Positions 2,463 through 47,416 of a stretch of 64,000 nt of DNA are shown here, in pieces; position 1 is the stretch's first letter; each line of letters opens with the position of its first letter. The DNA lies in IMG/VR virus record IMGVR_UViG_3300022555_000031, positions 1 through 64,000 of that record; one strand, written 5' to 3'. Source of the DNA: a virus (taxonomy: Duplodnaviria; Caudoviricetes). The position numbers were made by a program, and so were the translations under genes. A model generated the notes under the pieces. It made no database searches. It was given only the letters and a program-made list of their open reading frames with translations, and was not told the origin of the DNA.

Positions 2463-2698
2463 ATGATTTAATTGTGGAGATATTCAATGCCAACGAAGAG
2501 TTCTACCGTACTCTTGCCTCAAAATATAGGGATGGAAAAGTCCCCCCGTTAAAATTGAAACTCAACGTATCACGGATTAGTTTTCAGGGTGCCACAGAAT
2601 CGTTTCCGCTCCGCAACAGGTTAACTCTTGAGGGCACTGTGTGTGACGCAGAGTTTATGGGTAGGAAAAAAATCAAAATTACAAACAAGGGGAAGTAA
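2459..2698 (+). CDS. hypothetical protein
   Basis: ATGA/TAATG coupling to both neighbours. Confidence 0.65.
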   Translation: MNDLIVEIFNANEEFYRTLASKYRDGKVPPLKLKLNVSRISFQGATESFPLRNRLTLEGTVCDAEFMGRKKIKITNKGK

Positions 2699-3885
2699 TG
2701 AAAAAAGGAATAATCTCCGCAGACTGGCACATCGATTACAATAACAGGATGGATGACACCAGGGCACGCATTGACGAATTGGTCGACCATGCTATCGGGC
2801 ATAAGGTCGACTTTTTTGCGTTCAATGGTGACGCATACAAGAACTGCAGGCCCATGCCAGTAGAACAGGAGATATTTCAGTCGGCACAAATCAGGCTCGT
2901 AAATGCTGGCATCCAGGTTATAGACATTGTCGGCAATCACGACTATCCGAATAGCGAGAACCAGATACATTGTTTATCGGAGTGGAAGACGCTCGGCATA
3001 AAGGGTGTCACGGTTGTTGATGAGCCCTCGGTAATCTCCCTCGGTTCAGATGATGAAGGGCATTACGTGGCTCTTTGTATGCCACATATACCGAAATCTG
3101 TTACTGGTAAGAGAAGGTATGCCGAAGTTTATAAAGAGGAGTTTGAAAAACTCTGGGAAAATTACCAGGAGCATGTGAGGCATGTTTCCACGGGCCGTCC
3201 GTTTTACGTAATGTTCCTTTCACACGTCCTTGCTACTGGTGCCGTGCTTGGTGCTACTGATTGGGCTGTTGCCCAGGGCGACGGTGTAGATATTGCCGAG
3301 GTTCTGCGTGGCAAGTATATTGACCTTGGATTTTTAGGTGATGTTCATAAGGAGCAAAGCGTGTTGGTTCAGGGGCCTACGGTAGTAGCTTATAGCGGAA
3401 GCCTTGAGAGGATAGATTTCGGTGAAACAATGGATAGGAAGGGCTTCTACTCTGTTGAATTAGGACACCCGAGCAAGATGGAGTTTGTGGTCAATAACGC
3501 CGTTCCGTTTGTCGAGGTGGTTTGCAACATAACTACCTCATCTCCCATGAACGAACTCTCAGCCTTTCTGGAGCAAGAATTTCATAATCCAGGGAGGTAT
3601 GAGGGGGCTATCGTCAAAGTGGTGATAGAGGCGACCGAGGAGCAGGCCAGGTTGATAGACGAGACCAAGTTTAGGGAGCTGTTTGCCGAGCTCAGGCCAC
3701 GGGAGATAGCATCATTCCAGGTGAATGTAACTGGAGCCGAGCGGGTCCGTAACGAGAATGTAAACGAGAACGCCAGCCCAGTTGATACGCTGAAGGAATG
3801 GGTCGGGATGCAGGTTGATATATCGGAAGACAAAAAGGAACGTATTATCAAAACTGGGGAAAAAATCCTCAAGGGATTAAATTGA
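2698..3885 (+). CDS. sbcD: SbcD/Mre11-family nuclease subunit
   Basis: SADWH, NGDAY, VGNHD, SHV, GDVH (variant of GHxH) and YSGSLERIDFGE motifs; partner SbcC downstream. Confidence 0.92.
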   Translation: MKKGIISADWHIDYNNRMDDTRARIDELVDHAIGHKVDFFAFNGDAYKNCRPMPVEQEIFQSAQIRLVNAGIQVIDIVGNHDYPNSENQIHCLSEWKTLGIKGVTVVDEPSVISLGSDDEGHYVALCMPHIPKSVTGKRRYAEVYKEEFEKLWENYQEHVRHVSTGRPFYVMFLSHVLATGAVLGATDWAVAQGDGVDIAEVLRGKYIDLGFLGDVHKEQSVLVQGPTVVAYSGSLERIDFGETMDRKGFYSVELGHPSKMEFVVNNAVPFVEVVCNITTSSPMNELSAFLEQEFHNPGRYEGAIVKVVIEATEEQARLIDETKFRELFAELRPREIASFQVNVTGAERVRNENVNENASPVDTLKEWVGMQVDISEDKKERIIKTGEKILKGLN

Positions 3886-3902
3886 GACCAAGGAGGTCGA
3901 CA

Positions 3903-4178
3903 ATGGCACTGTTTGCAAAGAAAGCGAAGGGCAAGGTAGAGAAGGTCAGGGTAACTATCGTGAAGCTCAGCGACAAGCTGAAAGAGATTGTTGTCCCAGT
4001 CGGGACTACAATTGAGGCCTGTTTCAAGCAGGCGGGGATTGAAGTTGCCTCGCAGTTTGAACTCCGCAAGGTAATCAATCTTGGGGCGAAACCCAAGACC
4101 TACAAGGCAAAGTTCACGGATGCAATCAAGGAACCAACCAACGTGTTCTATTCACCAAATGTCAAGGGTGGAAGGTAA
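3903..4178 (+). CDS. ubiquitin-like beta-grasp protein (91 aa, C-terminus KGG-R)
   Basis: SD AGGAGGT at 3891; strand-strand-helix pattern (VRVTIVK/EIVVP/TIEACFKQAG), ends NVFYSPNVKGGR; adjacent to E2, JAB and E1. Confidence 0.8.
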   Translation: MALFAKKAKGKVEKVRVTIVKLSDKLKEIVVPVGTTIEACFKQAGIEVASQFELRKVINLGAKPKTYKAKFTDAIKEPTNVFYSPNVKGGR

Positions 4179-4185
4179 ACTAAAC

Positions 4186-4224
4186 GGGGCCGTCACCCAG
4201 GCTGTGGCTTGGGTGATGGCGTCC
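4186..4224 (+). promoter_or_regulatory. strong intergenic RNA hairpin after Ubl gene
   Basis: GCCGTCACCCAGGC-TGTG-GCTTGGGTGATGGC, 14-bp core with two G-U pairs plus 3 outer pairs; no U tract. Confidence 0.65.
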
Positions 4225-4238
4225 CACAGGAGAGGTAA

Positions 4239-6047
4239 ATGTCAATGGTAACTCCACGTGATGCAAGCACTTCATTCCCAGCTCCTGAGCCCATACGTGT
4301 AGGCGTAGATGGGCAGGATTATGAGATACGTGGGCCAAGCGAACCAGGCCTGTGGCGTGACGAGGGGATGACAATCGAGACAACTATTCCAAGCTCTTAT
4401 AGCATGGGCGTAAAAGAATCTCGTTCACAGGATATGACCGAGTATAAGCCAGAAGACATCAAGACGGTGGAGTATGGCGGGTATAAGATTACATACGAAG
4501 ATAGCAACGGGAAAGTTGCAGATTATCTTGATGCGTTCAAGGTGGTGGTTGACAAATACAAGATAAATGTTACAGTTTACAATGTGCACGACCGCAATAA
4601 TTTGCCCTACGTGGACACCTTGAAGTCTCCGTCCAGGGATACTTTGTTTATTACAAACTTCGCTGTGCCGATTGTGGCAAAGAGGAAGAAGGACAGATTT
4701 AAGTCTGTAAAAAAGTTCAAGGAGATGTCCGTTGTGCAGGGTGGGGAGAATATAATCCTCAAGTTGAACGATTGGGAAGTAAAGTTGGAGAAGGGCCAGT
4801 CAGATTCCTACGCTTATGATAGTGGCATTGCCGAGGAGTTTTGTATCCGTGACGATACAAACATAAACATCCTGGGCACGGTTGATGCGAACAAGATTTT
4901 CATATCGTTTGACCTGATGCACTCTTCGAGCGACGATTCCAAGAGAATATTCTTATACATCGTGGATAAAGCCATGCAAGTTATGACCGACCTACACGAT
5001 GAATTGTTTGGTGCTTTTGACCAAGACACCTACCTCCAGTTTTGCAACAAGGCCTTCTTGAAGATGGTGCAAGAAAAACGCAGGTCTATTTTGGCAATTA
5101 ACAGACAAACCCTTGATTTTGAGCACACTATATTTTGCCTTCAGCGTGACAAGTGGAAACTTGTTAACGAACTCAGGCATATGGACGAGAACGAGATTAT
5201 CCAGGAGAAGAAAGAGGAATACAGTGAGCTGGTTAAACTGGCAAGCCTCGGAGGCTACAAGGAGTTCAAGATAATAGATGGTTACCTTTATGCCTATACC
5301 AATGAAATAACGGTTGAATACAAGGAGAAAAATTATCTCTTAGGCGAGTTTGAGGTAAAAGTCGGTGGAGAGCGAGGCGAGTTGCATATCAGGAACTTGA
5401 CCAATCAAAGGAAGGGATACAACCACCCGCACGTCAATAGAGAGGGCCATTGTTGCCTGGGGAATATCAGTTCCGATGTCCAGAAGATGCTGGGTGCCGA
5501 GCAGTATCTAATGGCGTTCCAGATGCTTTATAACTTCCTGGCGTCTTATGACGACAAAAATCCGTACACCAAGATAGATTTGTGGGATACGGAGTGGGAC
5601 GGTAAGACGGTGGTGAGCACGGAATTATCTCTTGCCGACATAGACGAGCAACTCGAACGTGATGAGAACGATGTGGAGCCCAGCTTGGATGGTTCTGTCA
5701 GGAGCCCAAGGGTGAGCCCTGATGTTGCCGACAACCTAAGGAGTTTGCCTAACGACGTAGATAGGGAAATGGAGCAGGTTATGGCCAGACACGCAGACGG
5801 GCAGATGCTTGGGTCCCGTCCACAGACCAGTGAGGAACGGGCCAGAGCGATAGTACGGGAGGAGATTCTTGGGGTTGATTCGGATTTACCAGCGACCCAT
5901 GGAAATGGTATGGAGATTGTGAGGGTAGATATGTCGCAACCAGGGAGCGAGTCTTTGTCGCCCGAAACGCTTCGCAGTGCATTAACGGTGCACGGTATGG
6001 GCGAAGCACAGGAAAGAGAGCCAGCAACACCAGAGCTACAATTTTAG
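4239..6047 (+). CDS. coiled-coil + prokaryotic E2 (UBC-like) domain protein
   Basis: NHPHVNREGHCCLGN (HPHV..G..CLG E2 signature, codons from 5424) after a coiled coil; acidic disordered tail. Confidence 0.75.
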   Translation: MSMVTPRDASTSFPAPEPIRVGVDGQDYEIRGPSEPGLWRDEGMTIETTIPSSYSMGVKESRSQDMTEYKPEDIKTVEYGGYKITYEDSNGKVADYLDAFKVVVDKYKINVTVYNVHDRNNLPYVDTLKSPSRDTLFITNFAVPIVAKRKKDRFKSVKKFKEMSVVQGGENIILKLNDWEVKLEKGQSDSYAYDSGIAEEFCIRDDTNINILGTVDANKIFISFDLMHSSSDDSKRIFLYIVDKAMQVMTDLHDELFGAFDQDTYLQFCNKAFLKMVQEKRRSILAINRQTLDFEHTIFCLQRDKWKLVNELRHMDENEIIQEKKEEYSELVKLASLGGYKEFKIIDGYLYAYTNEITVEYKEKNYLLGEFEVKVGGERGELHIRNLTNQRKGYNHPHVNREGHCCLGNISSDVQKMLGAEQYLMAFQMLYNFLASYDDKNPYTKIDLWDTEWDGKTVVSTELSLADIDEQLERDENDVEPSLDGSVRSPRVSPDVADNLRSLPNDVDREMEQVMARHADGQMLGSRPQTSEERARAIVREEILGVDSDLPATHGNGMEIVRVDMSQPGSESLSPETLRSALTVHGMGEAQEREPATPELQF

Positions 6048-6059
6048 GGAGGAGCAAGA

Positions 6060-6683
6060 ATGCGAGTATTTTTTCCATATTTCAAGGTGTCGATAGAAGA
6101 AGCAACGTATAAAAGAATCATGGATATTACTATGGCCACCAAGGGTGAGTGGAGTTGTTTTGGTGTGGTGAAAAAAGACGGTAATAATTTCCTGATATCA
6201 GACATAGTCATCCCTAAGCAGGATAACAGTGCTGGGCAAACGACTATGGATATCGACGACCTTTGCGACATGGCGAGTGATATGGCTCTCCGTGGACAGG
6301 ATACTTCCGAGTGGCATTGCTGGATTCATTCGCACGGGGATTTCAATGTGTTCTATTCATCTACTGACAACAAAACCATAGACGGGTTTATGAAGTTCTT
6401 CTCGCAGGAGAATTCATACCTGATTTCGATAGTCGTGAATCACGCAGGGGAGTTGATATGCAGGGTTGATATCAACTATCCTGTTCGGGTTACGCTCGGC
6501 GAGGTTGTAGTGGAGATTAAGAAGGCGACGGTCCCGTTGTTAGCTCCTCCGCCGATAATAGACAAAGAGAGAGTGTTGACGCTTGTTAAAAATAGCAGGG
6601 GATTTTATAGTATTAGAGGGGCCAGGTTATACAGGACTCCGATAGAGGAAAGTATAGACGTTATAACCAAGGAGGATAAATAG
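6060..6683 (+). CDS. JAB/MPN+ metallopeptidase (deubiquitinase-like)
   Basis: N-terminal Glu (GEWSCFG) and WIHSHGDFNVFYSSTD = HxH-x7-S-x2-D JAMM motif. Confidence 0.88.
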   Translation: MRVFFPYFKVSIEEATYKRIMDITMATKGEWSCFGVVKKDGNNFLISDIVIPKQDNSAGQTTMDIDDLCDMASDMALRGQDTSEWHCWIHSHGDFNVFYSSTDNKTIDGFMKFFSQENSYLISIVVNHAGELICRVDINYPVRVTLGEVVVEIKKATVPLLAPPPIIDKERVLTLVKNSRGFYSIRGARLYRTPIEESIDVITKEDK

Positions 6684-7820
6684 ATGGATGCTGATATCAG
6701 GCAGATGCAAGAGTTTGTTCTAAACACCATAAGGACAACCTTTGTATCGGATTTGGTGGCAGGAGACCCCACGCCACTATTACCGCCACCAGCCCCGCCA
6801 GAGAGCAATGCAATGTTCTGGAGGCAGTTGGATATTGTAAACGTGGATAACCTAAGGACCCTCCCAATAGTAATCATTGGTGCTGGGGCTGTTGGAAGTT
6901 TTACCGCTTTAAGTTTGGCCAAGATGGGAGCGGAAGATATCACTGTTTACGATGACGATAAAGTTGAGATGCACAACCTACCCAACCAGTTCTATCGGTT
7001 GGCGGATATTGATAGGTTCAAGGTGCGGGCGTTAAGGGGTATCATCCAAGATTTCACTGGCATCAAGATAAAGATTTTCAACAAGAGATACAAGGCACAA
7101 CCGCTATCTGGGGTTGTTATTGTGACGGTAGATTCTATGGCCTCCAGGAAAATTATCTGGGAGAGGGCCAAGATGAACCCGCTGGTCCCGTTATATGTCG
7201 ATTCCAGGATGGGGGCACAGGTTTACGACATCCAATCCTTCCGTCCTACAGACATGGATGCGATAAAGTATTATGAAGAATCCTTACATGACGACAAGAA
7301 TACGCTCACTGAAAGATGCACGGAGAAGGCTATTATTTATACAGTGATGTCTATGGCTAATCTTTTGTGCAACATGGTGAAGAGGTTTATCCAGGGAGAT
7401 AAGGTTCCAATGCGTATCAATGGAGACGGCGTGACACTCATGCAGAACGTGGAAGAGGACCCGCTTGAGACCGAACCATTGCCATCCCTGGAAAAGGAAG
7501 AGGGTGTTGAGCCAGACTTATTCTCTGTCCGCAATAACATCGGCGACTTGGTTGGTCAGCCACTTACTGCAGGGAATCTACAGCGGGCAATGGAAGGTCT
7601 GCGGGTAACAAGACCTGATTCGTCAATAGACGTGGGGGAATATGAGCGGGCTTTGAGGTCTGCTGGAGTGGCGGTAGCTGAAAGGAGTGACGCCAGTAAT
7701 GTCGTTGAGGGCACCGCAAGGGAGAGTGTTATAACGGAGATTCCACTAAGGGCAACCACCAACAGGGTAGTGTTGAATGATGGAATATACCTCGGAGCAA
7801 GAGGGTCACGCTCCAGTTAG
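6684..7820 (+). CDS. E1/ThiF-family adenylyltransferase (Ubl-activating enzyme)
   Basis: IIGAGAVGS, YDDDKVEMHNLPNQF, VDSMASRK, YVDSRMG; candidate catalytic Cys in ERCTEK; no CxxC Zn sites. Confidence 0.9.
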   Translation: MDADIRQMQEFVLNTIRTTFVSDLVAGDPTPLLPPPAPPESNAMFWRQLDIVNVDNLRTLPIVIIGAGAVGSFTALSLAKMGAEDITVYDDDKVEMHNLPNQFYRLADIDRFKVRALRGIIQDFTGIKIKIFNKRYKAQPLSGVVIVTVDSMASRKIIWERAKMNPLVPLYVDSRMGAQVYDIQSFRPTDMDAIKYYEESLHDDKNTLTERCTEKAIIYTVMSMANLLCNMVKRFIQGDKVPMRINGDGVTLMQNVEEDPLETEPLPSLEKEEGVEPDLFSVRNNIGDLVGQPLTAGNLQRAMEGLRVTRPDSSIDVGEYERALRSAGVAVAERSDASNVVEGTARESVITEIPLRATTNRVVLNDGIYLGARGSRSS

Positions 7821-7844
7821 AACCTTGTAACAACGGAGGAATAC

Positions 7845-10046
7845 ATGGATGTTAGAAAGGTAGTGTATAGTAATTTCAAGTCGCTTCGTAATGAGACGTT
7901 GGATTTGGCTGGTATCAACGGGGCCTTTTTGGTCCTGGGTATGATAAACGGGGACCCAGGGTTGTCTAACGGGGCGGGTAAATCCTCAATGGTTGAGGGC
8001 TATGTCTGGTGTGTTTTTGGCGAATCACCATTGAAGAGTGATGATGAGCTTATAACTACTGGCGAAGACACGATGTCCGTCCAGACTGAATATGTTTCCA
8101 ATGGCAACAATTATGTAATCTACAGGAAAAGAATACGTGGCAAGAAGACCGAGTTGCTCTTTACGGAGAACGGCAGGTCTTTGACCGAGAACAGTGTGAA
8201 GGCGACGCAGGCGGTTATCCATGAGAAACTTTTGTCATACAATCTCTACCTTAACACTGGGTATTTCAAACAGCAGGAGTTTGACGTTCTTGCCAGACAG
8301 ACCCCAGCGAACCGCAAAGCGATACTTATGGAGCTACTACCTCTCCTGATTTATTCTAAGGGACTGGAAGCGGTTAAAGCTTACATCTCTTCCCTCGAGA
8401 AAGACATCTATGCTAAGGAGCAAAGCCTGTCTGATATAGACTTGAAGGTTATCGAGACCCAACTGGAGACCTGCGGGTTGCTTATTGCAACGCTCAGGGG
8501 CCGTGTGGAGCAGGATACCGCCACCATCAAGGGGTTGACTGCGGAGTTGGACGGTTATCAGCAGGAGTATGGCAAGTTCCAGGGTAAATTGCAGATGCTT
8601 GAAAGCATGACTGATGAGTTAAAGAAGGCGACTCGTGAAGTTGAGATGATAGAGACGCAGATTGGGAATAACAGGCGGGCCAAGGAGAACGAAATCTCTA
8701 ACACGAAATCAGAGATAGGTAAATGCCAGGACCAGATAGGGGGCAAGGTTCGGATAGACAGTATCCTGGCCGAGATAGAAGCAGAGGTTAAGAAGATTGC
8801 CACGGTGAAGATTGAGGTGGCACAGTTAACCGAAGAGCGTAGGGGTTTAACCGAACAGGGTATTGTCATCCAAAGGAATATCCCTGCATTAAAGGCCGAG
8901 GTTGATAAACTTAGGAACAAATATAAAGCACTGGCCGAGGTGGAGACGCCAGATTGCCCATTGTGCGGGTCGCTGTTGGACACGGAGAAGGTAGGCAAGG
9001 TCCTCAAGGACATAGAGGAAGAGGGTAAGGCAAAGAAAGCACAGATGGAGGGCCTGGAAGAAGACCTGAAGGCCATTGGGGAGAAGGTCCGTGCTGTTGA
9101 TGAGAACATTAAAAGACATGAGTCTTCTTTACAGAGAGAGCGGGAGATAGAGAAGGATAAAAAGAAATATGAGGCCATGCTTGTTGATATACAGATTGCC
9201 GAGAACAGGCTCCAGTATATGAAGGACCAGCAACAACAGATAGAAGCTAAATACGCCTCAGACGATACGATGATTACCAGTATGCGAGATGAGAAGATAA
9301 AGCACAAAGCGGACCTGGAGAAGAAGGTTAAGGCGATAGACATAGACAAGACCGCAGTTAATAAGGTGGCCTTTGCTATAGAAGAGAAGCAGGCCCAGAT
9401 TAAGATGAAGCAAAGGGGCATTGAAGATACCATGCAGGAAATCGGGAAGTCGGAACAGTTTATCAAGCAACACGAGGAGACCAAGAAGAAGTTTGCGGTA
9501 GACTCTCAGCGGTTGGTCGAGATGAAGGACGAAATGTTCATCTATGAGCAACTGGCCAGGGCATTTGGCAAAGACGGAATACCAGCGTTGATACTCGAGA
9601 ACGTTATCCCTGAGATAGAGATTGAAGCTAATGCTATCATGGCCAGGTTGAGCAGTGGCAAGATGAGGATAAGTTTACTTACACAGCGAGAGAAGAAAGC
9701 TGGCGGGCTCACAGAGACCCTGGACATAGTTATCAGCGACGACAAGGGGTCGAGGGCGTATGAGTCGTATTCTGGCGGAGAGAGAATGAGAATCAATATG
9801 GCAATCCGCCTTGCCTTGTCCAAGATACTCTGCAGACGCTCGGGGACGAAGATAGAGACGGTTATCATCGACGAGGTGGACGCCCTGGACGACGCTGGTG
9901 TCAGGGGTTTCGTATCAGTGATAAACGACATGCAAAACATGTTCAAGAAGATTATAATTATTTCGCATATCAGCGAGCTGAAAGAATACTTCAAACAGAC
10001 CATCACGGTCAATAAGACTTTAGAGGGCAGTAAGATAATTGTCTGA
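7845..10046 (+). CDS. sbcC: SbcC/Rad50-family SMC-like ATPase
   Basis: Walker A NGAGKSS, long coiled coil with CPLC Zn hook, signature YSGGE, Walker B IIDEVDALD, H-loop ISH. Confidence 0.95.
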   Translation: MDVRKVVYSNFKSLRNETLDLAGINGAFLVLGMINGDPGLSNGAGKSSMVEGYVWCVFGESPLKSDDELITTGEDTMSVQTEYVSNGNNYVIYRKRIRGKKTELLFTENGRSLTENSVKATQAVIHEKLLSYNLYLNTGYFKQQEFDVLARQTPANRKAILMELLPLLIYSKGLEAVKAYISSLEKDIYAKEQSLSDIDLKVIETQLETCGLLIATLRGRVEQDTATIKGLTAELDGYQQEYGKFQGKLQMLESMTDELKKATREVEMIETQIGNNRRAKENEISNTKSEIGKCQDQIGGKVRIDSILAEIEAEVKKIATVKIEVAQLTEERRGLTEQGIVIQRNIPALKAEVDKLRNKYKALAEVETPDCPLCGSLLDTEKVGKVLKDIEEEGKAKKAQMEGLEEDLKAIGEKVRAVDENIKRHESSLQREREIEKDKKKYEAMLVDIQIAENRLQYMKDQQQQIEAKYASDDTMITSMRDEKIKHKADLEKKVKAIDIDKTAVNKVAFAIEEKQAQIKMKQRGIEDTMQEIGKSEQFIKQHEETKKKFAVDSQRLVEMKDEMFIYEQLARAFGKDGIPALILENVIPEIEIEANAIMARLSSGKMRISLLTQREKKAGGLTETLDIVISDDKGSRAYESYSGGERMRINMAIRLALSKILCRRSGTKIETVIIDEVDALDDAGVRGFVSVINDMQNMFKKIIIISHISELKEYFKQTITVNKTLEGSKIIV

Positions 10047-39123: not shown

Positions 39124-39368
39124 GGATGAGGCCGTCTATGGATAGTGGGTCAGTAGAGACCCGCAAGGCAGAAGCCCGTAAGATGATTTACGATGTCCTC
39201 GACCAGGATAGACAGGTATTTATTGGCGAGGTATTCGTTAACACAGGCATCACACCGCAGGAAATCAGCGAGAAGTTCATTATCAACGAGACAAGAATGA
39301 TAACGGATGCCGACAAAGACGGGTACGGTTACAACGTAGAAGCCCGTGTCAGGCTGGTGAGGAAATGA
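39120..39368 (+). CDS. hypothetical protein (start revised)
   Basis: ATGA coupling at both ends. Confidence 0.6.
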   Translation: MRMRPSMDSGSVETRKAEARKMIYDVLDQDRQVFIGEVFVNTGITPQEISEKFIINETRMITDADKDGYGYNVEARVRLVRK

Positions 39369-42300
39369 CGGAACAAGAGATAAATAAAATATGGGAGTTG
39401 GCCAGGAGCGTTAATCACAGCTTCCAGGTGAACCTGAGCTTTGAACGTGATGGTTCAGATGAAAAACAAATCAACATCTCTGCTGATATGGCGGAAGAAC
39501 TGCGTAAAGACCTTCTATCTGGGGATTCCAAGGAAGAGGTCTACGGGAGATGGTATAACAGAATTCCCACCAGCAGGGCTCTCCCGAGTAGCGGAGTTGT
39601 CTTTTTCAGTCTGCACGAATACTACCACATCAATCCGTCTGCTGGCATATACGAGAACGTGAACTACTGCCTATGCACGGGATATACACGGGAAATCCCA
39701 GGGCGTCTTGTGGATGTTGGCCCATGGATGTTCAGCACGTCACCCAGCAGATTCAGAAACTTACTTACGCAGTATGAAAGAGAGTATGGGAGGGATAAGT
39801 TGATAGATTTGTTAAACAGGCTCGCCTCGCAGAACATTCTGTTGCGTGAAGGTAGTCGAAAGGGTGCGGAGAAGCTTATTGAGAAGGTAAAGTGCGAGCA
39901 CCAGTTGACAGTCACAGACGCCACCAATGATGATTCATGGGCCTGCGTGATTGATAGTAGCCTGTTCAAGTTAAAGGAAATTGAGGCCGACTTTGCGAAT
40001 GGTGACCTCGGTGCCGACGGGATGGTGCAGAAGTGGTGGGATTTGCTTGGGGGAAGTGACGAGCCTACAGACGTTGAGAGTATTGAAATTATCAAGGTAT
40101 ACGATGTGACGCTTAAAGACGGAGACCTGATTCAGATGTTTTTTAGTTTCAATGGGGAATATTATGAGTGGGTGGATATGGATACGTCGGGTTGTGGTGA
40201 AGACAGCGATGGAGAAATATTTCAAGACGAAATAGATAGGATGAGCGATATGGCAAGGATACAGATGCTGGACAGTTTCCTTGAAGGAGAGAACATCTTG
40301 CTACGGGAAGGTAGCCGAAAGGGTGCGGAGAAATTGATAGCATGTGCAGAGCGTAGCCACCAACTCTTCATGGAGAGTGAGGAGTATGGTAAAGAGTGTT
40401 GGGAGGTGGGCAACGACTTAATAGGCGACGTAGAGGCCGATTTTAATAATTTAGATATAGACGGTGATACGTTTGTGTTGAAATGGCGTGGCCAGCTTGG
40501 CGGGGATGGGGTGAGGCTTAATACCGACACGGTTAAACTGTTCAGGAAATATAACGTGACATTCCAGGATGGGGGCTCGTGTTGGATTACTTTCGTACGT
40601 AAGCTAAACAGGCCTGAATACGGGGGACCCATTACAGACGCAGTTTACGGTGGTGGCGATGTGGCAAAATTTGAGAGGCACATACAGAGCATGTCGGACT
40701 CTGAGATAATAAATATGTTGGATGATTTCCTTGAAGGCGAGAACATCTTATTAAGAGAGGGAAGTCTCAAGGGTGCTGATAAGTTGATTGACCGTGTAAC
40801 CCGCAAGCACTACTTGGACCTGGAGGGCGGTTTTGGTGCAGATTCTTATGACATAGAGATTGGTAGCGGGTCGTATCTTGAGGTTGTTGCTGATTATCTC
40901 AATGACAACGTTACCGTGGGAGACCTGATAGGTAAGTGGTGGGGCCCGTTGACTGATAAACCAAAGCCCGAAACACTTCACCTGGTCGGCAGTATCGGCG
41001 TGCAGAAGGTGTTGGATATCCGTGTCAAGGATGGGGGGTTGGTAAGGGTTACCTTGGAGTTAAACAAAGTAAGTCAATGCTATGAGCTTCTCCGTGTAGA
41101 CGAGATGGTGCAGAGTTTGGACTCGAATAGTTTGCTGGACGAGATGGAGGAGGTACCCAATAGTGAGTGGCTTTTCTTGTTGGTCCCAAAGATTGAAGGA
41201 GAGAATATCTTGCTCCGTGAGGGCATGAACAAGAGAGCACAACTGGATAGTTCCCATATTATGGACGTTAAGCGGAATAATCGGATAGAGGTTATGGTGG
41301 GCGACGGCGAAGATAGGGGCGATTACACTGAGTGTAGCGATGATGAGTTCAAGGAGTTGCTTGCTGACGTTTCTAATAATTCTATAACCAACGAGGACTT
41401 TTTGCGGAAATGGTGCCCGAGTGTCCCAGGGGAAGAGGCGTATGATTTGAATATGGCTATCTACTCGGAGTATTGCATCACATTTGCAGATGGCGGAGAG
41501 ATAGAGTTCTCGCTGAGGTATATGGGGCTACAGGACACGAATCTGTGGAGACTACATAACCCAGAGGTCCATGTTGCGTCGGACCAGTCCAGTGCGTTCA
41601 TGGATTACCTGACGAGGCCAGATATGGGGGCGGTAACTTATTCGAGGATGATACCAAATGAAGATGTGGAACAGTTGAACAACCTTTGCGGTGGGACGAA
41701 CATATTACTGAGGGAGGGCACTCTGAAGAAGGCCGATAGCGTGGCGTCAATGAAACGGATGGACGAGTTGACCAGGTCTGTGACTTGCGAGAGAACGTTT
41801 GAGGTGTTGGCCCTGAACGCTGATAATCCCTCTCGTGAAGGTAGCTTGGACAAAAAGGCCATGAACACACTCCAGGATATGGAAGGGGTTGTGGCGTGGG
41901 TATCGCACAAGAATATCCTTTACTTACTTCCTCTGAACGGGGACTTTGGCATAGAAGTTGAGATACCAGACAGCCTGATACCAGACATTCTGATAGATTT
42001 TTCGAATGGCAACCTCAGTCAACAAGGGATAGCAAGGACATGGTGGCCCGACTTATCTGGTGGGGAGCAGGTGCCAGAGAATGAAGGTTGCAGACTCATC
42101 TCTCAGTATGCAGTGGAGATGAGCGATGGTGGTGCGTGCACGGTGGAGTATGTATCCGCCCCAGGCTTGGATGGGCATAGTGTGCATAGGATTACAAAAG
42201 AATCTAATGACGCTAATGTGTTCTATGATTTAATTTTTAATTATAAAGACAGAGAAGTTTACGAGTGGCTGATTGATAGGGTAAGTGGGAAGAACATTTT

Positions 42301-45300
42301 GCTAAGAGAGGGGGCCTTGGGTAAGGAGGCGAGGGTGAGATTAGAGGATATGAGCGACCAGGTAGAAGAGATAACACACGAGAACATCTTCTACGTGGTG
42401 CGGTGTGCGACTTCTGAAAACACAGACTTCGAGATACCAGATGATATCCTTGCAGAGGTTTGCCATGATTACATGAGTCTAAGAAGTGCCCAAGAGGTGA
42501 TAGACAAGTGGTGGGGTAAGATATCTACACAGCCAAAGCCAGAAGACTACGAGGGAGTGAGGATTGTTTCCCAGTATTATGTAGGCATGAATGATGGTGG
42601 TATTGGCCGACTGGAGTTTATATTGGACACCGTTCATGGGTGGTCCTGGTTATTTCACGAAGAGTATCAACCCTCTTCGGCTATACGCAATCTCGAGCGG
42701 TTACTAAGTGGTGTGACGGCCAGCAAGGCAATTGATTGGTTAAACACCAGGATGGAGGGGGTTAACATCCTGCTCAGAGAAGGAACCGTTAAGACGGCTC
42801 TTGAGGAATACCCATTGAATAGGGTGAACGATAAAGTGACATGTGTGAAGAGTCAGCTTGCGTTGGTGTTTCATATGTATACTTATAATGAAAGAGCCGA
42901 AGAGATTGTGGTAATCCCCCGTGAATACGAAAAAGGTGTTATTACTGATTACGTAGACCAAGCTATAGACATATCGGGAATGGTGGAGAAGTGGTGCCCG
43001 AAACTGTTCGAAGATGGGCATCGGATGCGGGACGGCAGTGCACTTGAGCTGTGCACGGGGATTGACCTGCTTCGTCAGTATATAGTTGCAACAGATGATG
43101 GCGGGGAGATGGGGTTTGATTATAAATGTAACACCGACCCGCAGGATTTTATCTATTACGAGCGGGGTATAATGACAGAGACTCCGCATGCCAAATTGGT
43201 CTTTGACGAGATAGCGGACGACGAAGATAGGCTTGGTTGGTTGAATATGTGGGCAAACGGGATAAACATACTCGAGAGAGAGGGGAGCGTAAAGACTGCC
43301 GAGTCGGATGTGGAGTGGGATAAGATAAGCGATATGATAGAGAAGGTGGATTATCAGTTGTGGATTGATTATACGGGGGATAGTGTCTACTTTGACCCGC
43401 TTGAAGTCCCCCGTGAGCTCGAGCAAGAGATAATCAAGGAATACCATGACCTTGAAGGTGTAGGGGTGGAGATTGGGACTATACATGCCGTGCAGGCGTT
43501 CTTTGATAAATGGTTCCCCCGCTTAGGAGTGGAAGAGGATATCCCGACATACAATCCCAATAGGGATAGTTGGGGATTCACAACCGAATACATTGTTGCG
43601 GTGAAAGGTGGTGGAACTGTAACTGTTTCAGCGTATGGAGAGCCAGCGGAAGTGACTGAAGACATTCGGGAGATAGACGGTTATGGTGAGGGTCAGCCCT
43701 ACTTTGAATTTTACGATGCGATTGGATATGCCTGGGAAGTAGACCCAGAGCGTCTGCGTGAGCTTTTGTGGAACAGGTATCAGGGTGGGCAGAACATATT
43801 ATTAAGGGAAGGTCGGGGTAGCCTATTCCGAGGGATAGATTTTTCCGTTGTATCAGGTGTAGATATTCATGTCTATATTGAATGGGAAGACCAATATGAC
43901 GGTCGAAAGAGGGGCCATGTTGAGTTGCAGGGTGACGACCTGCGGGATGCGTCAAATATTTACCGTAGCTGGGGTGAGGCTCCTGAATACTTCAAGGAAC
44001 ATTATCTGCCAAAATTCATTCCAGAGGGGATGGACATTTATCCACTTTACCCGAAAGTTACAGTGGAGGGGACGATTACAACGGCAGATGGCGGGAAGTT
44101 ACGCTTTGATAACAGCTATTTATGGCAATTAGGAGAGCCTACTCCTCAATCTAAAAAACTATGCAGAAAGATTTACAGTCGTCGGGAGGCACATTGCACG
44201 GCAGATTTCGTTGCGTGGGCCGTTGAGTTCCAGGAGGGCTCCACGAACATATTGTTACGTGAAGGGTCTCAAAGGGAAGTAGTACCGTTCTACTATCCCA
44301 ACGTGCAGGTGTTGTTGGAAAACTTCCCACAGTATGAGGGCAGGCTTCAGACAGTTAATCCAGACGAGGTTAGGGAATGGATAAGCGAGGTAGAGGGTAG
44401 GGCCGAGACAAAGTTTAATGAGAGCATAAGCCCAGAGGATTATTTATCCAAGGACGATAGCTGGGCCTACAACGTATTGGGAAACGCACTTGGGGTATGC
44501 CCAATAGACTATGATGACCGTGAAGAGGTATTTGATTACCTCAAGCAGTTCTTGATTAACCCATTGACTACAATCGATGAATTATTCCCAAGGTCAGACG
44601 TGGTCCCGCCGTTTGAAAGGTACCTGGACGAGGGAAAGATGCGGTATGCCTATGAGTATTTATGGGATGCGGGATATGAGAGGGCCCTTTCAATTGATTT
44701 CTGTGCACAGGATTATCTTGACGAAGCAGAGGGGCAGATGTTGATTTGTGCCCTATTCCTGGTTGGTGATGCGGAGGCGTTGGCTCCTGCAAGCATATGG
44801 GATAAGTTCTTTATCAAGTTCTCACCCAAGACCACGTTAGAGCGTGAAGGTGTAAGGGTTGAAGGCATGATGAGGAAGGCGTCGATAGAGTTCACGCCGA
44901 TAGATTTGGGCGGGATAGTGAACGCTTATGACTTTATGTCAGTCCATCCAGAATACGACCCCAGGAAGGGTGGTGAGGTTGTTGACAGTGGTCCCATTGA
45001 TAGAAGGAGAACAGTGGCGAAGCTTGTCACGATACTCGGGACAAACGGCAAACACGCAGTATTATTGATGGACGACGGTTCCAGATACCTGGTTGGCAAG
45101 AAGCCGTTCCAGTTGCTACATGGGGCCTGGGAGGCCAATCTCTCTGGCAAGGGTGTCACTGAAAAGATGGAGAAGCTACGTGATAATCTTAACGAAGAGC
45201 AAGGTGAGGCTGAAATAGATTTTGTGGGAGAAGTAGACCAGCACAGGGCGGATGATTTGTTCAAGACCTGGGAGGAGTTAACTCCCAATGAGCAAGTAAT

Positions 45301-47416
45301 GGTAGCGAAGAAGATACCAACTACAAAAACCAAGACACCGATAAAACTCTACTACAACGACCACGTGAAAGAGTTCGCCATCTTCAGGAAGCCAGTAAAG
45401 AAGAAAGCGGATGCCGTGGATGCACCGAAGGGGCAGTGGCAGGATAGTAGCCTGTTGTCTCATGAATACGGAATTACATTAGGCCCGTCGATGGCGAGCA
45501 TTGGATGTTATTATCCAGATGAATCCGAGAAGAGCCTAAGGCTTCTCTATATAATATCTCGTAGACACGTTAGCACTTGTTATTTGCAAGGTAAAGATGA
45601 TGGATACGTTGAGGAGCTGGTTGATACTCTCGCACGTTATCTTATGCGACAAGTGGCAGACGAAGGGATTACTATAGAAGATTTAATGAGAGAGTATGCC
45701 AACCACACACGGGACTTTAATGAGACAGTTGAGCGGGTGCAAAATTCAATTGGCAATATCCTGTTACGAGAGGGGAGCCTGGAGAAGAAGTCTGAGTATG
45801 ATTTTAACCATGGACAGTGGCCGATGGCGGGGATGATTGGTGGAGTTGGGGAATTTGCCCGAGAAGACGGTCAAGGCCTCGGGCACCATTACAAATTAGA
45901 CCTGGACGGTTACACCCGTGTCGGCTGTTTCGATGGAGGGGTAGATAATAAAGACCATCAGTGGAAGGTATACTTCTTAGGTAGGGCAGTAGTAATTATT
46001 ACGGATTTTAATTATAGCTGGGAATACGCTGAGGGAGCTGTTAACGCTATCGGCAGGCATTTAGTTGAACAGACCAAGACCGATGGAGTTACCTTTGAGA
46101 CAATCACCAACGGGTTTGAATGGGATAGACGCAAGTTCAGGGAGATGGTCCAGTCGGTTGGCAGTTCAGTCCTACCGCCCCTGTTAAGGGAGGGGAGTGC
46201 GGTCGGGACCCGTGAGGATGCCAGCAAACTGAGTCTGGGTGGAGATTATTGGTGGAGGGGAATAACGGAAGACGAGGCGAAGTACATAATAGAGAACAAC
46301 AAGTTTAAGTATCATTCCGATGTGCCGATATACTGTGACCCCGAGGTTATGGAGTTCTTGGGAATGACCGATGAAGAAGGCGAGGAGATAGAGAGATATA
46401 TCGGCAAGCGGAAGGTGGTTAACGTTACCAAGGACCTTGAGAACGCCAGGGGTTATGGGCCGTATGTTGTAGCGGTGCCACGGGATGCAGTTGAAGAGTA
46501 TGACCAGTATGGGTTTGTGTTATTCGAGACCCCAGTGAGCAAGGTGTTTGATTCAGGGGACGCCCTTGCCGTCCGAGAGGCCAAGTTGAATGTTGGTGAA
46601 CTTGTGTGGGGTTCACACGATAACGGTGACGAGTATTGCGAGATGCAACTGCTCCCAGATAACTCACGTGGAACGGGCGGTGTCTCGCTTGTTGCTCAGA
46701 GGAACTGGATGAAAGAGTGGAACCTATTCCTGAATCAAAGGGATGGTAGAATTATATCACTGCAAATGCCAGGTGACCCCAGTAGTGAGATGATAGAAAA
46801 TCTTGTTAGGGGAGTTGCGAGGCGACTGATACCGCTCGGCATTGATATGTTTGGCGGGAGTAATTTCATCCACGCCTTAGAGGAGACCCAAGGAGATATC
46901 CCGACGATACTGAGGGAAGGTAAAAAGAAATCACTCATTGACGACGTGAAGCAGGTTGAGCACACGTGGTCGCTCACACCGAGCGACGGGGATTCATGGG
47001 AGATACCGAAACCGATACTCAATGAAGTGAAGGGTGACTACGAGAATATGAGTACCAAGAAGTTCCTGGAGAAGTGGTGGGAGGTTATTACTGAGCTTCC
47101 GTGGAGACCCGAGGATTACGAAGGACTGTTTAACGAGGGAGGGAATGTAGATGATTACAATGGGTTTGGCATAGACATAGACCATTCTTACTGGATTCAG
47201 ATGAAAGACGGCGGGGAGCTCTTTATAGATTACTATGGATTTTATGAGGGTGGTGAGCCACAGATGAACGTTTCGACTCCGCAGGCGGATGCACTCTTCC
47301 GTATGTTAAAGTATGGCGGTGACGGTAACGACGAGTCGGAGGAAATCATGGACCAGTTGGAGCAGATGGTGGAACCGTTGAACATCTTACTGAGAGAGGG
47401 TAAAAAGATTGACTAA
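39365..47416 (+). CDS. giant (2683 aa) modular protein: 12 NILLREG tags + 4 degenerate, tandem paralogous ~150-aa domains, ART-like domain
   Basis: Uninterrupted ORF; tags every ~150-176 aa through the first two-thirds; ends NILLREGKKID*. Confidence 0.9.
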   Translation: MTEQEINKIWELARSVNHSFQVNLSFERDGSDEKQINISADMAEELRKDLLSGDSKEEVYGRWYNRIPTSRALPSSGVVFFSLHEYYHINPSAGIYENVNYCLCTGYTREIPGRLVDVGPWMFSTSPSRFRNLLTQYEREYGRDKLIDLLNRLASQNILLREGSRKGAEKLIEKVKCEHQLTVTDATNDDSWACVIDSSLFKLKEIEADFANGDLGADGMVQKWWDLLGGSDEPTDVESIEIIKVYDVTLKDGDLIQMFFSFNGEYYEWVDMDTSGCGEDSDGEIFQDEIDRMSDMARIQMLDSFLEGENILLREGSRKGAEKLIACAERSHQLFMESEEYGKECWEVGNDLIGDVEADFNNLDIDGDTFVLKWRGQLGGDGVRLNTDTVKLFRKYNVTFQDGGSCWITFVRKLNRPEYGGPITDAVYGGGDVAKFERHIQSMSDSEIINMLDDFLEGENILLREGSLKGADKLIDRVTRKHYLDLEGGFGADSYDIEIGSGSYLEVVADYLNDNVTVGDLIGKWWGPLTDKPKPETLHLVGSIGVQKVLDIRVKDGGLVRVTLELNKVSQCYELLRVDEMVQSLDSNSLLDEMEEVPNSEWLFLLVPKIEGENILLREGMNKRAQLDSSHIMDVKRNNRIEVMVGDGEDRGDYTECSDDEFKELLADVSNNSITNEDFLRKWCPSVPGEEAYDLNMAIYSEYCITFADGGEIEFSLRYMGLQDTNLWRLHNPEVHVASDQSSAFMDYLTRPDMGAVTYSRMIPNEDVEQLNNLCGGTNILLREGTLKKADSVASMKRMDELTRSVTCERTFEVLALNADNPSREGSLDKKAMNTLQDMEGVVAWVSHKNILYLLPLNGDFGIEVEIPDSLIPDILIDFSNGNLSQQGIARTWWPDLSGGEQVPENEGCRLISQYAVEMSDGGACTVEYVSAPGLDGHSVHRITKESNDANVFYDLIFNYKDREVYEWLIDRVSGKNILLREGALGKEARVRLEDMSDQVEEITHENIFYVVRCATSENTDFEIPDDILAEVCHDYMSLRSAQEVIDKWWGKISTQPKPEDYEGVRIVSQYYVGMNDGGIGRLEFILDTVHGWSWLFHEEYQPSSAIRNLERLLSGVTASKAIDWLNTRMEGVNILLREGTVKTALEEYPLNRVNDKVTCVKSQLALVFHMYTYNERAEEIVVIPREYEKGVITDYVDQAIDISGMVEKWCPKLFEDGHRMRDGSALELCTGIDLLRQYIVATDDGGEMGFDYKCNTDPQDFIYYERGIMTETPHAKLVFDEIADDEDRLGWLNMWANGINILEREGSVKTAESDVEWDKISDMIEKVDYQLWIDYTGDSVYFDPLEVPRELEQEIIKEYHDLEGVGVEIGTIHAVQAFFDKWFPRLGVEEDIPTYNPNRDSWGFTTEYIVAVKGGGTVTVSAYGEPAEVTEDIREIDGYGEGQPYFEFYDAIGYAWEVDPERLRELLWNRYQGGQNILLREGRGSLFRGIDFSVVSGVDIHVYIEWEDQYDGRKRGHVELQGDDLRDASNIYRSWGEAPEYFKEHYLPKFIPEGMDIYPLYPKVTVEGTITTADGGKLRFDNSYLWQLGEPTPQSKKLCRKIYSRREAHCTADFVAWAVEFQEGSTNILLREGSQREVVPFYYPNVQVLLENFPQYEGRLQTVNPDEVREWISEVEGRAETKFNESISPEDYLSKDDSWAYNVLGNALGVCPIDYDDREEVFDYLKQFLINPLTTIDELFPRSDVVPPFERYLDEGKMRYAYEYLWDAGYERALSIDFCAQDYLDEAEGQMLICALFLVGDAEALAPASIWDKFFIKFSPKTTLEREGVRVEGMMRKASIEFTPIDLGGIVNAYDFMSVHPEYDPRKGGEVVDSGPIDRRRTVAKLVTILGTNGKHAVLLMDDGSRYLVGKKPFQLLHGAWEANLSGKGVTEKMEKLRDNLNEEQGEAEIDFVGEVDQHRADDLFKTWEELTPNEQVMVAKKIPTTKTKTPIKLYYNDHVKEFAIFRKPVKKKADAVDAPKGQWQDSSLLSHEYGITLGPSMASIGCYYPDESEKSLRLLYIISRRHVSTCYLQGKDDGYVEELVDTLARYLMRQVADEGITIEDLMREYANHTRDFNETVERVQNSIGNILLREGSLEKKSEYDFNHGQWPMAGMIGGVGEFAREDGQGLGHHYKLDLDGYTRVGCFDGGVDNKDHQWKVYFLGRAVVIITDFNYSWEYAEGAVNAIGRHLVEQTKTDGVTFETITNGFEWDRRKFREMVQSVGSSVLPPLLREGSAVGTREDASKLSLGGDYWWRGITEDEAKYIIENNKFKYHSDVPIYCDPEVMEFLGMTDEEGEEIERYIGKRKVVNVTKDLENARGYGPYVVAVPRDAVEEYDQYGFVLFETPVSKVFDSGDALAVREAKLNVGELVWGSHDNGDEYCEMQLLPDNSRGTGGVSLVAQRNWMKEWNLFLNQRDGRIISLQMPGDPSSEMIENLVRGVARRLIPLGIDMFGGSNFIHALEETQGDIPTILREGKKKSLIDDVKQVEHTWSLTPSDGDSWEIPKPILNEVKGDYENMSTKKFLEKWWEVITELPWRPEDYEGLFNEGGNVDDYNGFGIDIDHSYWIQMKDGGELFIDYYGFYEGGEPQMNVSTPQADALFRMLKYGGDGNDESEEIMDQLEQMVEPLNILLREGKKID

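Follow-up and report, generated by a model that had tools for sequence, protein, structure and literature searches.

To our knowledge, ubiquitin-like conjugation in prokaryotes has been studied only as a means of host defence, namely in the cyclic oligonucleotide-based antiphage signalling system (CBASS) with its Cap2/Cap3 enzymes, in Bil and in Bub. The cassette described here is carried by a virus. It lies at positions 3903-7820 of a stretch of 64,000 nucleotides, hereafter the window, which corresponds to bases 1-64000 of the linear 85.6-kb IMG/VR virus record IMGVR_UViG_3300022555_000031, the record being about 75% complete by estimate. Four open reading frames (ORFs) of the + strand fill this interval, coding, in this order, a ubiquitin-like modifier (Ubl), a protein resembling the E2 conjugating enzymes, a JAB/JAMM metallopeptidase and a ThiF-type E1 activating enzyme; all four were found where the original prediction, made from the bare sequence, had placed four contiguous genes. 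The literature search, whose coverage of subscription journals was incomplete, retrieved no paper on complete phage-encoded Ubl cassettes or on this family of E2 proteins.

Described ubiquitin-like systems and the phage cassette

Among Ubl-E1-E2-JAB operons, a role has been demonstrated only for Bil (BilABCD), which tags a phage tail protein and blocks assembly (bioRxiv 10.1101/2023.09.04.556158, PMC11601596). The Bil Ubl often has a short C-terminal extension that is removed by the JAB enzyme, and the E2 is thought to pick the target (10.1101/2023.09.26.559546, PMC11601596). The window cassette resembles Bil in its four separate genes for Ubl, E2, JAB and E1, without an E3, and the model of its Ubl superposes on BilA (Z 7.4). 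However, BilD is a large IAD-AAD-CYS enzyme, whereas the window E1 is a single adenylation domain of about 220 aminoacids (aa), with its Cys in the crossover loop; among the E2s, the type II BilB is of a diverged "CEHH" kind, while the window protein keeps an HPN-type triad, in the form HPH, and aligns directly to the eukaryotic E2s. Moreover, Bil is a bacterial anti-phage operon, while the window cassette is phage-borne and placed inside a replication block.

Bub, formerly 6E/DUF6527, also combines Ubl, E2, E1 and, in type I, JAB activities, and the window Ubl superposes on BubA with Z 8.5. Bub systems have fused Ubl-E2, JAB-E1 or E2-E1 proteins, proceed through serine oxyesters and include a DUF6527 serine protease (PMC11601596); in contrast, the window genes are separate, Cys is invariant at the catalytic positions of both E1 and E2, and no match to DUF6527 was obtained among the window proteins. 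With CBASS Cap2/Cap3 the cassette shares a related E1 core and the presence of a JAB partner; indeed, the E1 matched the PADLOC "E1-E2" profiles (9e-12) and the NCBIfam 6A-MBL cap2_3 model (5e-12), in both cases with its nucleotide-binding part only. Unlike type II CBASS, it has no E2-E1 fusion and includes a dedicated beta-grasp Ubl, and there is no CD-NTase in the window ORFs around it. As for PRTRC, it likewise brings together a ThiF-like E1 with JAB and E2-like proteins in a mobile element, but neither ParB nor any other PRTRC protein accompanies the window cassette, and the PRTRC models scored below their cut-offs (TIGR03736, 34.2 bits against 144.75; TIGR03735, 12.1 bits against 101.8). 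The cassette would work like Bil, yet it lacks the features by which Bil, Bub, CBASS Cap2/Cap3 and PRTRC are defined. The original prediction had matched the gene set to the Bil, Bub and PRTRC families, a claim that is not supported in view of the single E1 domain of about 220 aa, the HPH triad, the PRTRC scores and the lack of DUF6527, ParB and CD-NTase.

The cassette can be compared also with the systems ThiS/MoaD-ThiF/MoeB, SAMP-UbaA-JAMM1 and TtuB-TtuC, to which it is similar for its small ThiS/MoaD-like, GG-ended beta-grasp protein, its minimal homodimer-type E1 and its JAMM partner. These systems lack an E2, whereas the other genes of the present cassette are accompanied, in tight linkage, by an E2 with an invariant Cys; their E1 enzymes differ from that of the window, in which the Arg of NLxRQ is absent and CxxC zinc motifs are not visible.

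The eukaryotic E2s share with the window protein the ubiquitin-conjugating (UBC) fold, with helix 1 and the beta-meander, an H-P-x triad and a catalytic Cys in the same register; the identity is, however, just 11-22%, a long N-terminal extension and a coiled coil are added in the window E2, and no Trp is evident downstream of its catalytic Cys. Among eukaryotic enzymes, those of the Ube2W type join ubiquitin to N-terminal amino groups. The presence of HPH instead of HPN is reported to be a unique property of the Ube2W family, in which the second His takes the role of Asn (PMC4630614). The window E2 has this same triad and the Ube2W-family UbcA1 (3we5) is among its fold and profile matches; by analogy, the triad hints that the viral enzyme may act on N-terminal amino groups, like Ube2W.

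The proteins of the cassette

The E2-like protein (602 aa; 4239-6047, + strand) is composed of an N-terminal lineage-specific region, a small beta domain, a coiled coil, the UBC domain and an acidic tail. It has no match in Pfam, NCBIfam, PADLOC and PHROGs, its single sequence found nothing in the PDB or in a scan of viral contigs, and 50,697 phage records contained no match to it by tblastn, nor to the cassette by blastn; a word-indexed protein search identified four relatives only. An exhaustive HMMER search of 1.84 billion representative proteins revealed 924 clusters at E<=1e-3, 176 of them at E<=1e-10, matching approximately residues 200-455. The alignment of 131 family members shows no variation at P397, C406 and G408, and conservation of at least 90% at H396, H398 and N409; these residues belong to the motif at positions 396-410, which reads HPHVNREGHCCLGNI in the window protein.

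The model of residues 170-480 (predicted local distance difference test, pLDDT, 89.2, falling below 70 past model residue 280 or so) displays a small beta domain, a helix of 52 residues and a helix/beta-meander/helix domain. The long helix (residues 262-313; 5022-5177, + strand; helix 93-144 of the model) corresponds to the coiled coil, for which coiled-coil matches were obtained in the VIA and PDB profile searches. The last domain, residues 317-455 (5187-5603, + strand), shows the UBC arrangement of an N-terminal helix, a four-stranded meander and C-terminal helices and contains the HPH triad at 5424-5432 and the invariant Cys406 at 5454-5456; its fold matches are almost exclusively E2 enzymes, both in Foldseek and in a VIA scan of 48,161 chains that was independent of it. 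Foldseek retrieved UbcH7, UbcH8, UbcH10 and Ubc13 at probability 0.9-0.99, with TM scores by target of 0.43-0.48; VIA found UbcH10 with Z 7.9 (121 aa, root-mean-square deviation, rmsd, 3.7) and Ube2K, Pex4 and UbcH5 with Z 7.2-7.3, values that are middling if taken alone.

The same assignment comes from profile comparison. A profile of the full-length family, when compared with the PDB, was swamped by coiled-coil noise, which was resolved by trimming to the core domain; the resulting core profile, built from 28 phage and bacterial members, listed only E2s (UBE2L3, E 2.9e-4; UBE2A, E 9e-3; then UBE2N and UBE2D), one of the rows being a construct named L3A2-1. The alignment spans from helix 1 through the meander and brings the family consensus HPHvneeGtpCL onto the UbcH7 sequence HPNIDEKGQVCL, so that the invariant Cys406 falls on the position of the catalytic Cys of UbcH7. 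Judged by profile and by model, the E2-like protein is a true UBC-fold E2-type enzyme with its catalytic Cys in register, and formation of a thioester with the Ubl on Cys406 is predicted.

Outside the core, the region upstream of the E2 domain varies across the family, from 110 to more than 800 aa. The C-terminal tail (residues 456-602; 5604-6044, + strand) is acidic, of low complexity and rich in Ser and Pro; in the alignment it is present yet unconserved in the two closest homologues and missing from most family members. Loci of other contigs, numbered L002 to L049 below, show additional variants of the family. The L046 locus contains a tandem E2 pair (574-1011 and 4-408, both on the - strand), of which one copy reads HPN...VVVGN and is without the catalytic Cys, resembling in this the ubiquitin E2 variant (UEV) partners of E2s; tandem paralogues occur also in loci L002, L019, L023 and L029. 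Long E2-like proteins (L018:6358-8457, L012:4685-7081 and L048:1247-3925) have a Cys-rich, zinc-ribbon-like C-terminal segment followed by an acidic tail; that of L018 matches Zn_ribbon_3 (E 9e-6). This zinc ribbon, present in some of the E2s, may be a built-in element for target binding or with an E3-like function.

The Ubl precursor (3903-4178, + strand) is 91 aa long from its ATG and ends with SPNVKGGR before a TAA stop, the GG being located at the end of the last strand and followed by one Arg. It has no match in Pfam, NCBIfam, PADLOC and PHROGs, and the word-indexed protein search returned its own copy alone. Its relatives were collected as small ORFs adjoining homologous cassettes in other phage contigs: 20 of these and the window Ubl align in a ThiS/MoaD-like pattern with a terminal G or GG. 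In all but two of the 21 proteins, the G or GG is followed by 1-4 extra residues (R, K, N, IA, NL, CL, GN, GA and others), a cap that gives the linked JAB peptidase a job. The AlphaFold2 model obtained with the 21-sequence alignment (mean pLDDT 76) has the beta-beta-alpha-beta-beta-beta order of a beta-grasp. Foldseek matched it to SUMO, ubiquitin and ISG15 at probability 1.00, with E-values from 4e-4, and VIA-align to MoaD (Z 8.9, rmsd 2.1, 70 aa), BubA (8.5), SAMP1 (7.9) and BilA (7.4). The original prediction had described a beta-grasp protein ending KGG-R next to a protein with the E2 signature HPHV..G..CLG, and had made these readings depend on the respective folds: both the beta-grasp and the UBC fold were recovered. 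The Ubl of locus L018 (4204-4608, - strand) consists of two beta-grasp repeats, the first ending internally with VPAIKGG and the second with VPAIKGGF; this di-Ubl resembles the two-domain ISG15 and BilA.

The JAB/JAMM metallopeptidase (207 aa; 6060-6683, + strand) contains Glu30 (6147-6149) and the motif HSHx7Sx2D (6327-6368). Its single sequence matches Pfam Prok-JAB weakly (E 0.012), and the profile of its family finds Rpn11 (6e-8) and also CSN5, archaeal JAMM1, AMSH and BRCC36. E30, H90, H92, S100 and D103, which form the full JAMM set, are invariant in 16 cassette homologues, and the intact JAMM motif noticed originally was confirmed.

The E1 (378 aa; 6684-7820, + strand) is a minimal ThiF/MoeB-type adenylating enzyme, with a core at about residues 45-245, the GxGxxG motif at 6879-6896 and Cys212 at 7317-7319. 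It matches Pfam ThiF with 8.7e-20, and its nearest solved relatives are UBA5, ThiF and ATG7. The features of the E1 superfamily are present: a Rossmann-type adenylation domain, GxGxxG, the ATP-binding Asp and Lys, the Mg-binding Asp and the N-terminal Arg. In 25 cassette E1s, G66, G68, D90, N98, K113, D150, R155, R175 and C212 are invariant and R47 is conserved in at least 90%. The family is made of proteins of 213-250 aa with a single adenylation domain, to which the window copy adds an unconserved, lineage-specific tail of 130 residues; it is 42% identical to the 233-aa E1 of locus L002. The window protein has two cysteines, C212 and C229, and not the single candidate that had been proposed; only C212, however, is invariant across the 25 homologues, and we take it to occupy the position of the UBA5/ThiF catalytic Cys, in or near the crossover loop.

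Genomic setting and occurrence in other phages

Nearly all the long ORFs of the window are on the + strand, GC content is 0.44-0.49 and GC skew is uniform throughout. Over 82% of its length the large terminase shares 37% identity with Bacillus phage G gp1; judged by these sequence features, the source of the record is an uncultured large phage, a distant relative of phage G. The cassette is flanked by genes for RuvC, a dCMP deaminase, an SbcD-type nuclease, an SbcC/Rad50-type ATPase and a sliding clamp, and its base composition is like that of these neighbours; since it is surrounded by such genes, shares their composition and is contained in a virus record, it is part of the replication/recombination block of the phage and not host DNA. 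Composition, gene neighbours and terminase thus agree with the original prediction in describing an apparently complete, intact Ubl-E2-JAB-E1 set that belongs to the phage. The adjoining flanks, both outside the cassette and on the + strand, are the SbcD/Mre11-type nuclease gene (2698-3885; Pfam Metallophos 1.1e-7) and the SbcC/Rad50-type ATPase gene (7845-10046; AAA_23, Rad50 zinc hook and SMC_N), so that in window 2698-10046 the cassette interrupts an SbcD-SbcC (Mre11-Rad50-type) gene pair. The association with SbcCD is not conserved, an SbcC or SbcD homologue adjoining the cassette in none of about 40 other loci.

Within the cassette the intergenic gaps measure 60, 12 and 0 nt, and the gap between the E1 gene and sbcC is of 24 nt. 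A Shine-Dalgarno sequence precedes each gene: AAGGAGG for the Ubl (3890-3896, + strand; 6 nt ahead of the ATG at 3903), GGGAGGAG for the E2, AAGGAGG for the JAB and ACGGAGG for the E1. The database copy of the Ubl protein (91 aa) begins at the ATG at 3903 and not at the upstream TTG at 3882. A stem-loop of 17 bp without a U tract (4186-4225, + strand) is located between the Ubl stop and the Shine-Dalgarno sequence and start of the E2; its RNA fold has -32 kcal/mol (z -3.65), a stability equalled in none of 200 shuffles, and it may be an mRNA stabiliser or an attenuator that sets or raises the ratio of Ubl to the enzymes. A consensus scan found no convincing internal terminator inside the cassette. 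The E2, JAB and E1 genes stop at TAG and are in the same frame as sbcC; a read-through fusion of the four products at amber codons was considered and ruled out, because each gene restarts with its own Shine-Dalgarno sequence and ATG and the window uses all three stops (TAA 15, TGA 8 and TAG 7 among its long ORFs), and E2, JAB and E1 are therefore separate genes. Elsewhere in the window, an ORF of 2,683 aa (39365-47416) carries the tag NILLREG 12 times; the JAB enzyme was considered as cutter of this polyprotein and dropped as no obvious candidate, since the repeated tag is unlike the KGG-R end of the Ubl.

The occurrence of the cassette was surveyed with a back-translated HPHx4Gx2CLGN pattern, which retrieved 43 IMG/VR stretches whose genes were assigned by hidden Markov models (HMMs) built from the cassette families. 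The E2 family was found in 40 of these loci, JAB in 31-34 and E1 in 30, several of the loci ending before the cassette does. The genes nearly always follow one another as E2-JAB-E1, and a small G- or GG-ended ORF lies just upstream or downstream: the linkage of the cassette genes is conserved across phages. The contigs that carry the E2 family span 12-277 kb, most of them 40-277 kb, and come from many unrelated large phages; in the ESM Atlas, the neighbours of the family are clusters without name or Pfam family, mostly from Uroviricota and Candidatus Methylomirabilota. A metagenome-assembled genome of Methylomirabilales encodes a 374-aa protein of the E2 family, with a JAB gene immediately after it (L003:3123-4858) and no E1 or Ubl visible in this 10-kb locus. 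A 178-kb phage contig encodes, about 0.6 kb upstream of the cassette, an AAA+ ATPase of 589 aa (L002:3130-4899, + strand) that matches weakly the proteasomal-ATPase OB domain (E 0.083); relatives of this protein occur in 4 loci, two of which are on the same contig, and the ATPase might serve to read or unfold tagged proteins.

Cultured phages carry members of the same families. In the Xanthomonas jumbo phage PhiXhv-12 (L048:745-4621), an 892-aa protein with HPH...CLG (core HMM E 3e-6) is followed by an E1, and an ORF of 140 aa ending KASGG lies upstream of the E2-like gene. Flavobacterium phage FpV4 (gp51/gp50, L047:2686-4618) and Bacteroides phage crAss001 (gp77/gp76, L049:2774-5172) each have a JAB-E1 pair of these families in the replication module; the search for an E2 beside the two pairs gave, as the sole signal, a weak partial match of FpV4 gp49 (E 3.7e-4). 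In public databases the E1s of cultured phages are annotated as "thiamine biosynthesis protein" (ThiF), and the other homologues as "metalloprotease domain containing protein" or "hypothetical protein"; the labels "thiamine biosynthesis protein" and "hypothetical" are probably wrong.

Proposed mechanism, role and alternative explanations

The cassette is probably a working phage-borne ubiquitin-like conjugation pathway, and from the folds, the motifs, the invariant residues and the gene linkage found here we infer its chemical steps. Its four components, all intact, were each recognised on independent evidence. The JAMM peptidase would remove the C-terminal Arg of the Ubl precursor, exposing Gly-Gly; the minimal, presumably homodimeric ThiF-type E1, whose adenylating activity is assumed from its sequence, would use ATP to adenylate the Ubl glycine and then form a thioester on Cys212 of the crossover loop. 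The Ubl would pass from the E1 to Cys406 in the UBC domain of the 602-aa E2-like protein, which would transfer it to an amino group of the target, and the JAMM enzyme may also reverse the mark. With no E3 encoded, the E2-like protein would itself select the target, by means of its coiled coil and its variable N-terminal region; the E2s of Bil have likewise been proposed to recognise their targets without an E3 (PMC11601596). Timing, like target, we infer: the position of the cassette in the replication/recombination block suggests that it is probably expressed early or in the middle of infection.

Some observations weigh against such a pathway. Its chemistry rests on intact motifs and on conserved linkage, and the window encodes no E3, no reader (such as a proteasome-type ATPase) and no target; moreover, the look-alike Bub cassettes use an unexpected chemistry, based on oxyesters (PMC11601596). 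The Arg present in ThiF, MoeB and UBA5 (NLxRQ or NMNRL) is missing from the E1 family, which reads NLPNQ at this site, and in the alignment of its 25 homologues CxxC zinc motifs are not visible. Finally, the Ubl model is of moderate confidence (pLDDT 76), and its nearest fold match is the sulfur carrier MoaD.

This last match bears on the reading of the cassette as a sulfur-carrier system similar to ThiS, MoaD, TtuB or CysO, in which a Ubl thiocarboxylate would be made and the JAB enzyme would uncap the carrier, without any protein conjugation. Public annotations of the phage homologues as "thiamine biosynthesis protein ThiF", the ThiF models among which the best NCBIfam matches are found, and the uncapping of sulfur carriers described for JAB enzymes (Iyer et al. 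2006, PMC1779556) all go in the same direction. However, the ThiF/MoeB models remain far under their cut-offs (59.9 vs 159), and in the loci scanned no rhodanese, cysteine desulfurase, ThiG/ThiH/MoaE or tRNA thiolase was seen among the ORFs up to about 2.5 kb from the cassette, while a UBC-fold protein with an invariant Cys and the HPH triad, for which sulfur transfer has no use, is closely linked to the other genes across phages. Given this conserved E2 and the lack of linked genes for sulfur transfer, we regard this explanation as very improbable. Even less credible is a decayed or decoy cassette, which would have kept the folds and lost catalysis, acting by binding, for example by soaking up the Ubl machinery of the host. 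The E1 without the canonical Arg of NLxRQ and the long low-complexity tails of both window enzymes, E2 and E1, missing in their relatives, could be taken as signs of decay; but the Arg is absent throughout the family and its absence is not a lesion of the window copy, and none of the catalytic residues tested varies among distant homologues with 20-45% identity, which indicates selection on catalysis.

As to the role of such a conjugation pathway, a host-directed function, either takeover or counter-defence, is quite possible; regulation or assembly of the phage's own proteins is rather doubtful, exclusion of competing phages is unlikely, and some other role is improbable. The original prediction had suggested the tagging of host or phage proteins, or the jamming of Bil or CBASS; the present results favour counter-defence no more than the other roles. 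A Bil-like exclusion system, using the same chemistry to tag structural proteins of superinfecting competitor phages, is in our opinion quite unlikely: Bil itself offers the precedent and the variable N-terminal regions of the E2s, from 110 to more than 800 aa, would fit rapidly changing targets, but here and in other phages (as in locus L032, where DnaB is encoded near the cassette) the genes are located in the core replication block and not in an accessory island, and they are kept in many unrelated large phages. In addition, no defence-type regulator (CapW, CapH/CapP) was seen, and PADLOC detects the generic E1 part only. A bolder reading, possible but less likely than not, is that large tailed phages use E1, E2, Ubl and JAB offensively, with an E2 that, early or in the middle of infection, might tag proteins of host defence or proteostasis, or proteins of phage replication or recombination, through its fast-evolving N-terminus.

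Cultured carriers make the question testable, PhiXhv-12 with its E2-like protein, E1 and GG-ended protein, and FpV4 and crAss001 with their JAB-E1 pairs. With this cassette a ubiquitin-like toolkit is found in a virus, centred on an E2 family without a name in any of the libraries searched, and the profile alignment of this family to the eukaryotic E2s bears on the origin of the classical E2. If the offensive use considered above is true, ubiquitin-type signalling would be a regular viral weapon in the conflict between bacteria and phages, and it would involve an E2 lineage closer in sequence to the eukaryotic E2s than those of Bil, Bub and Cap2.

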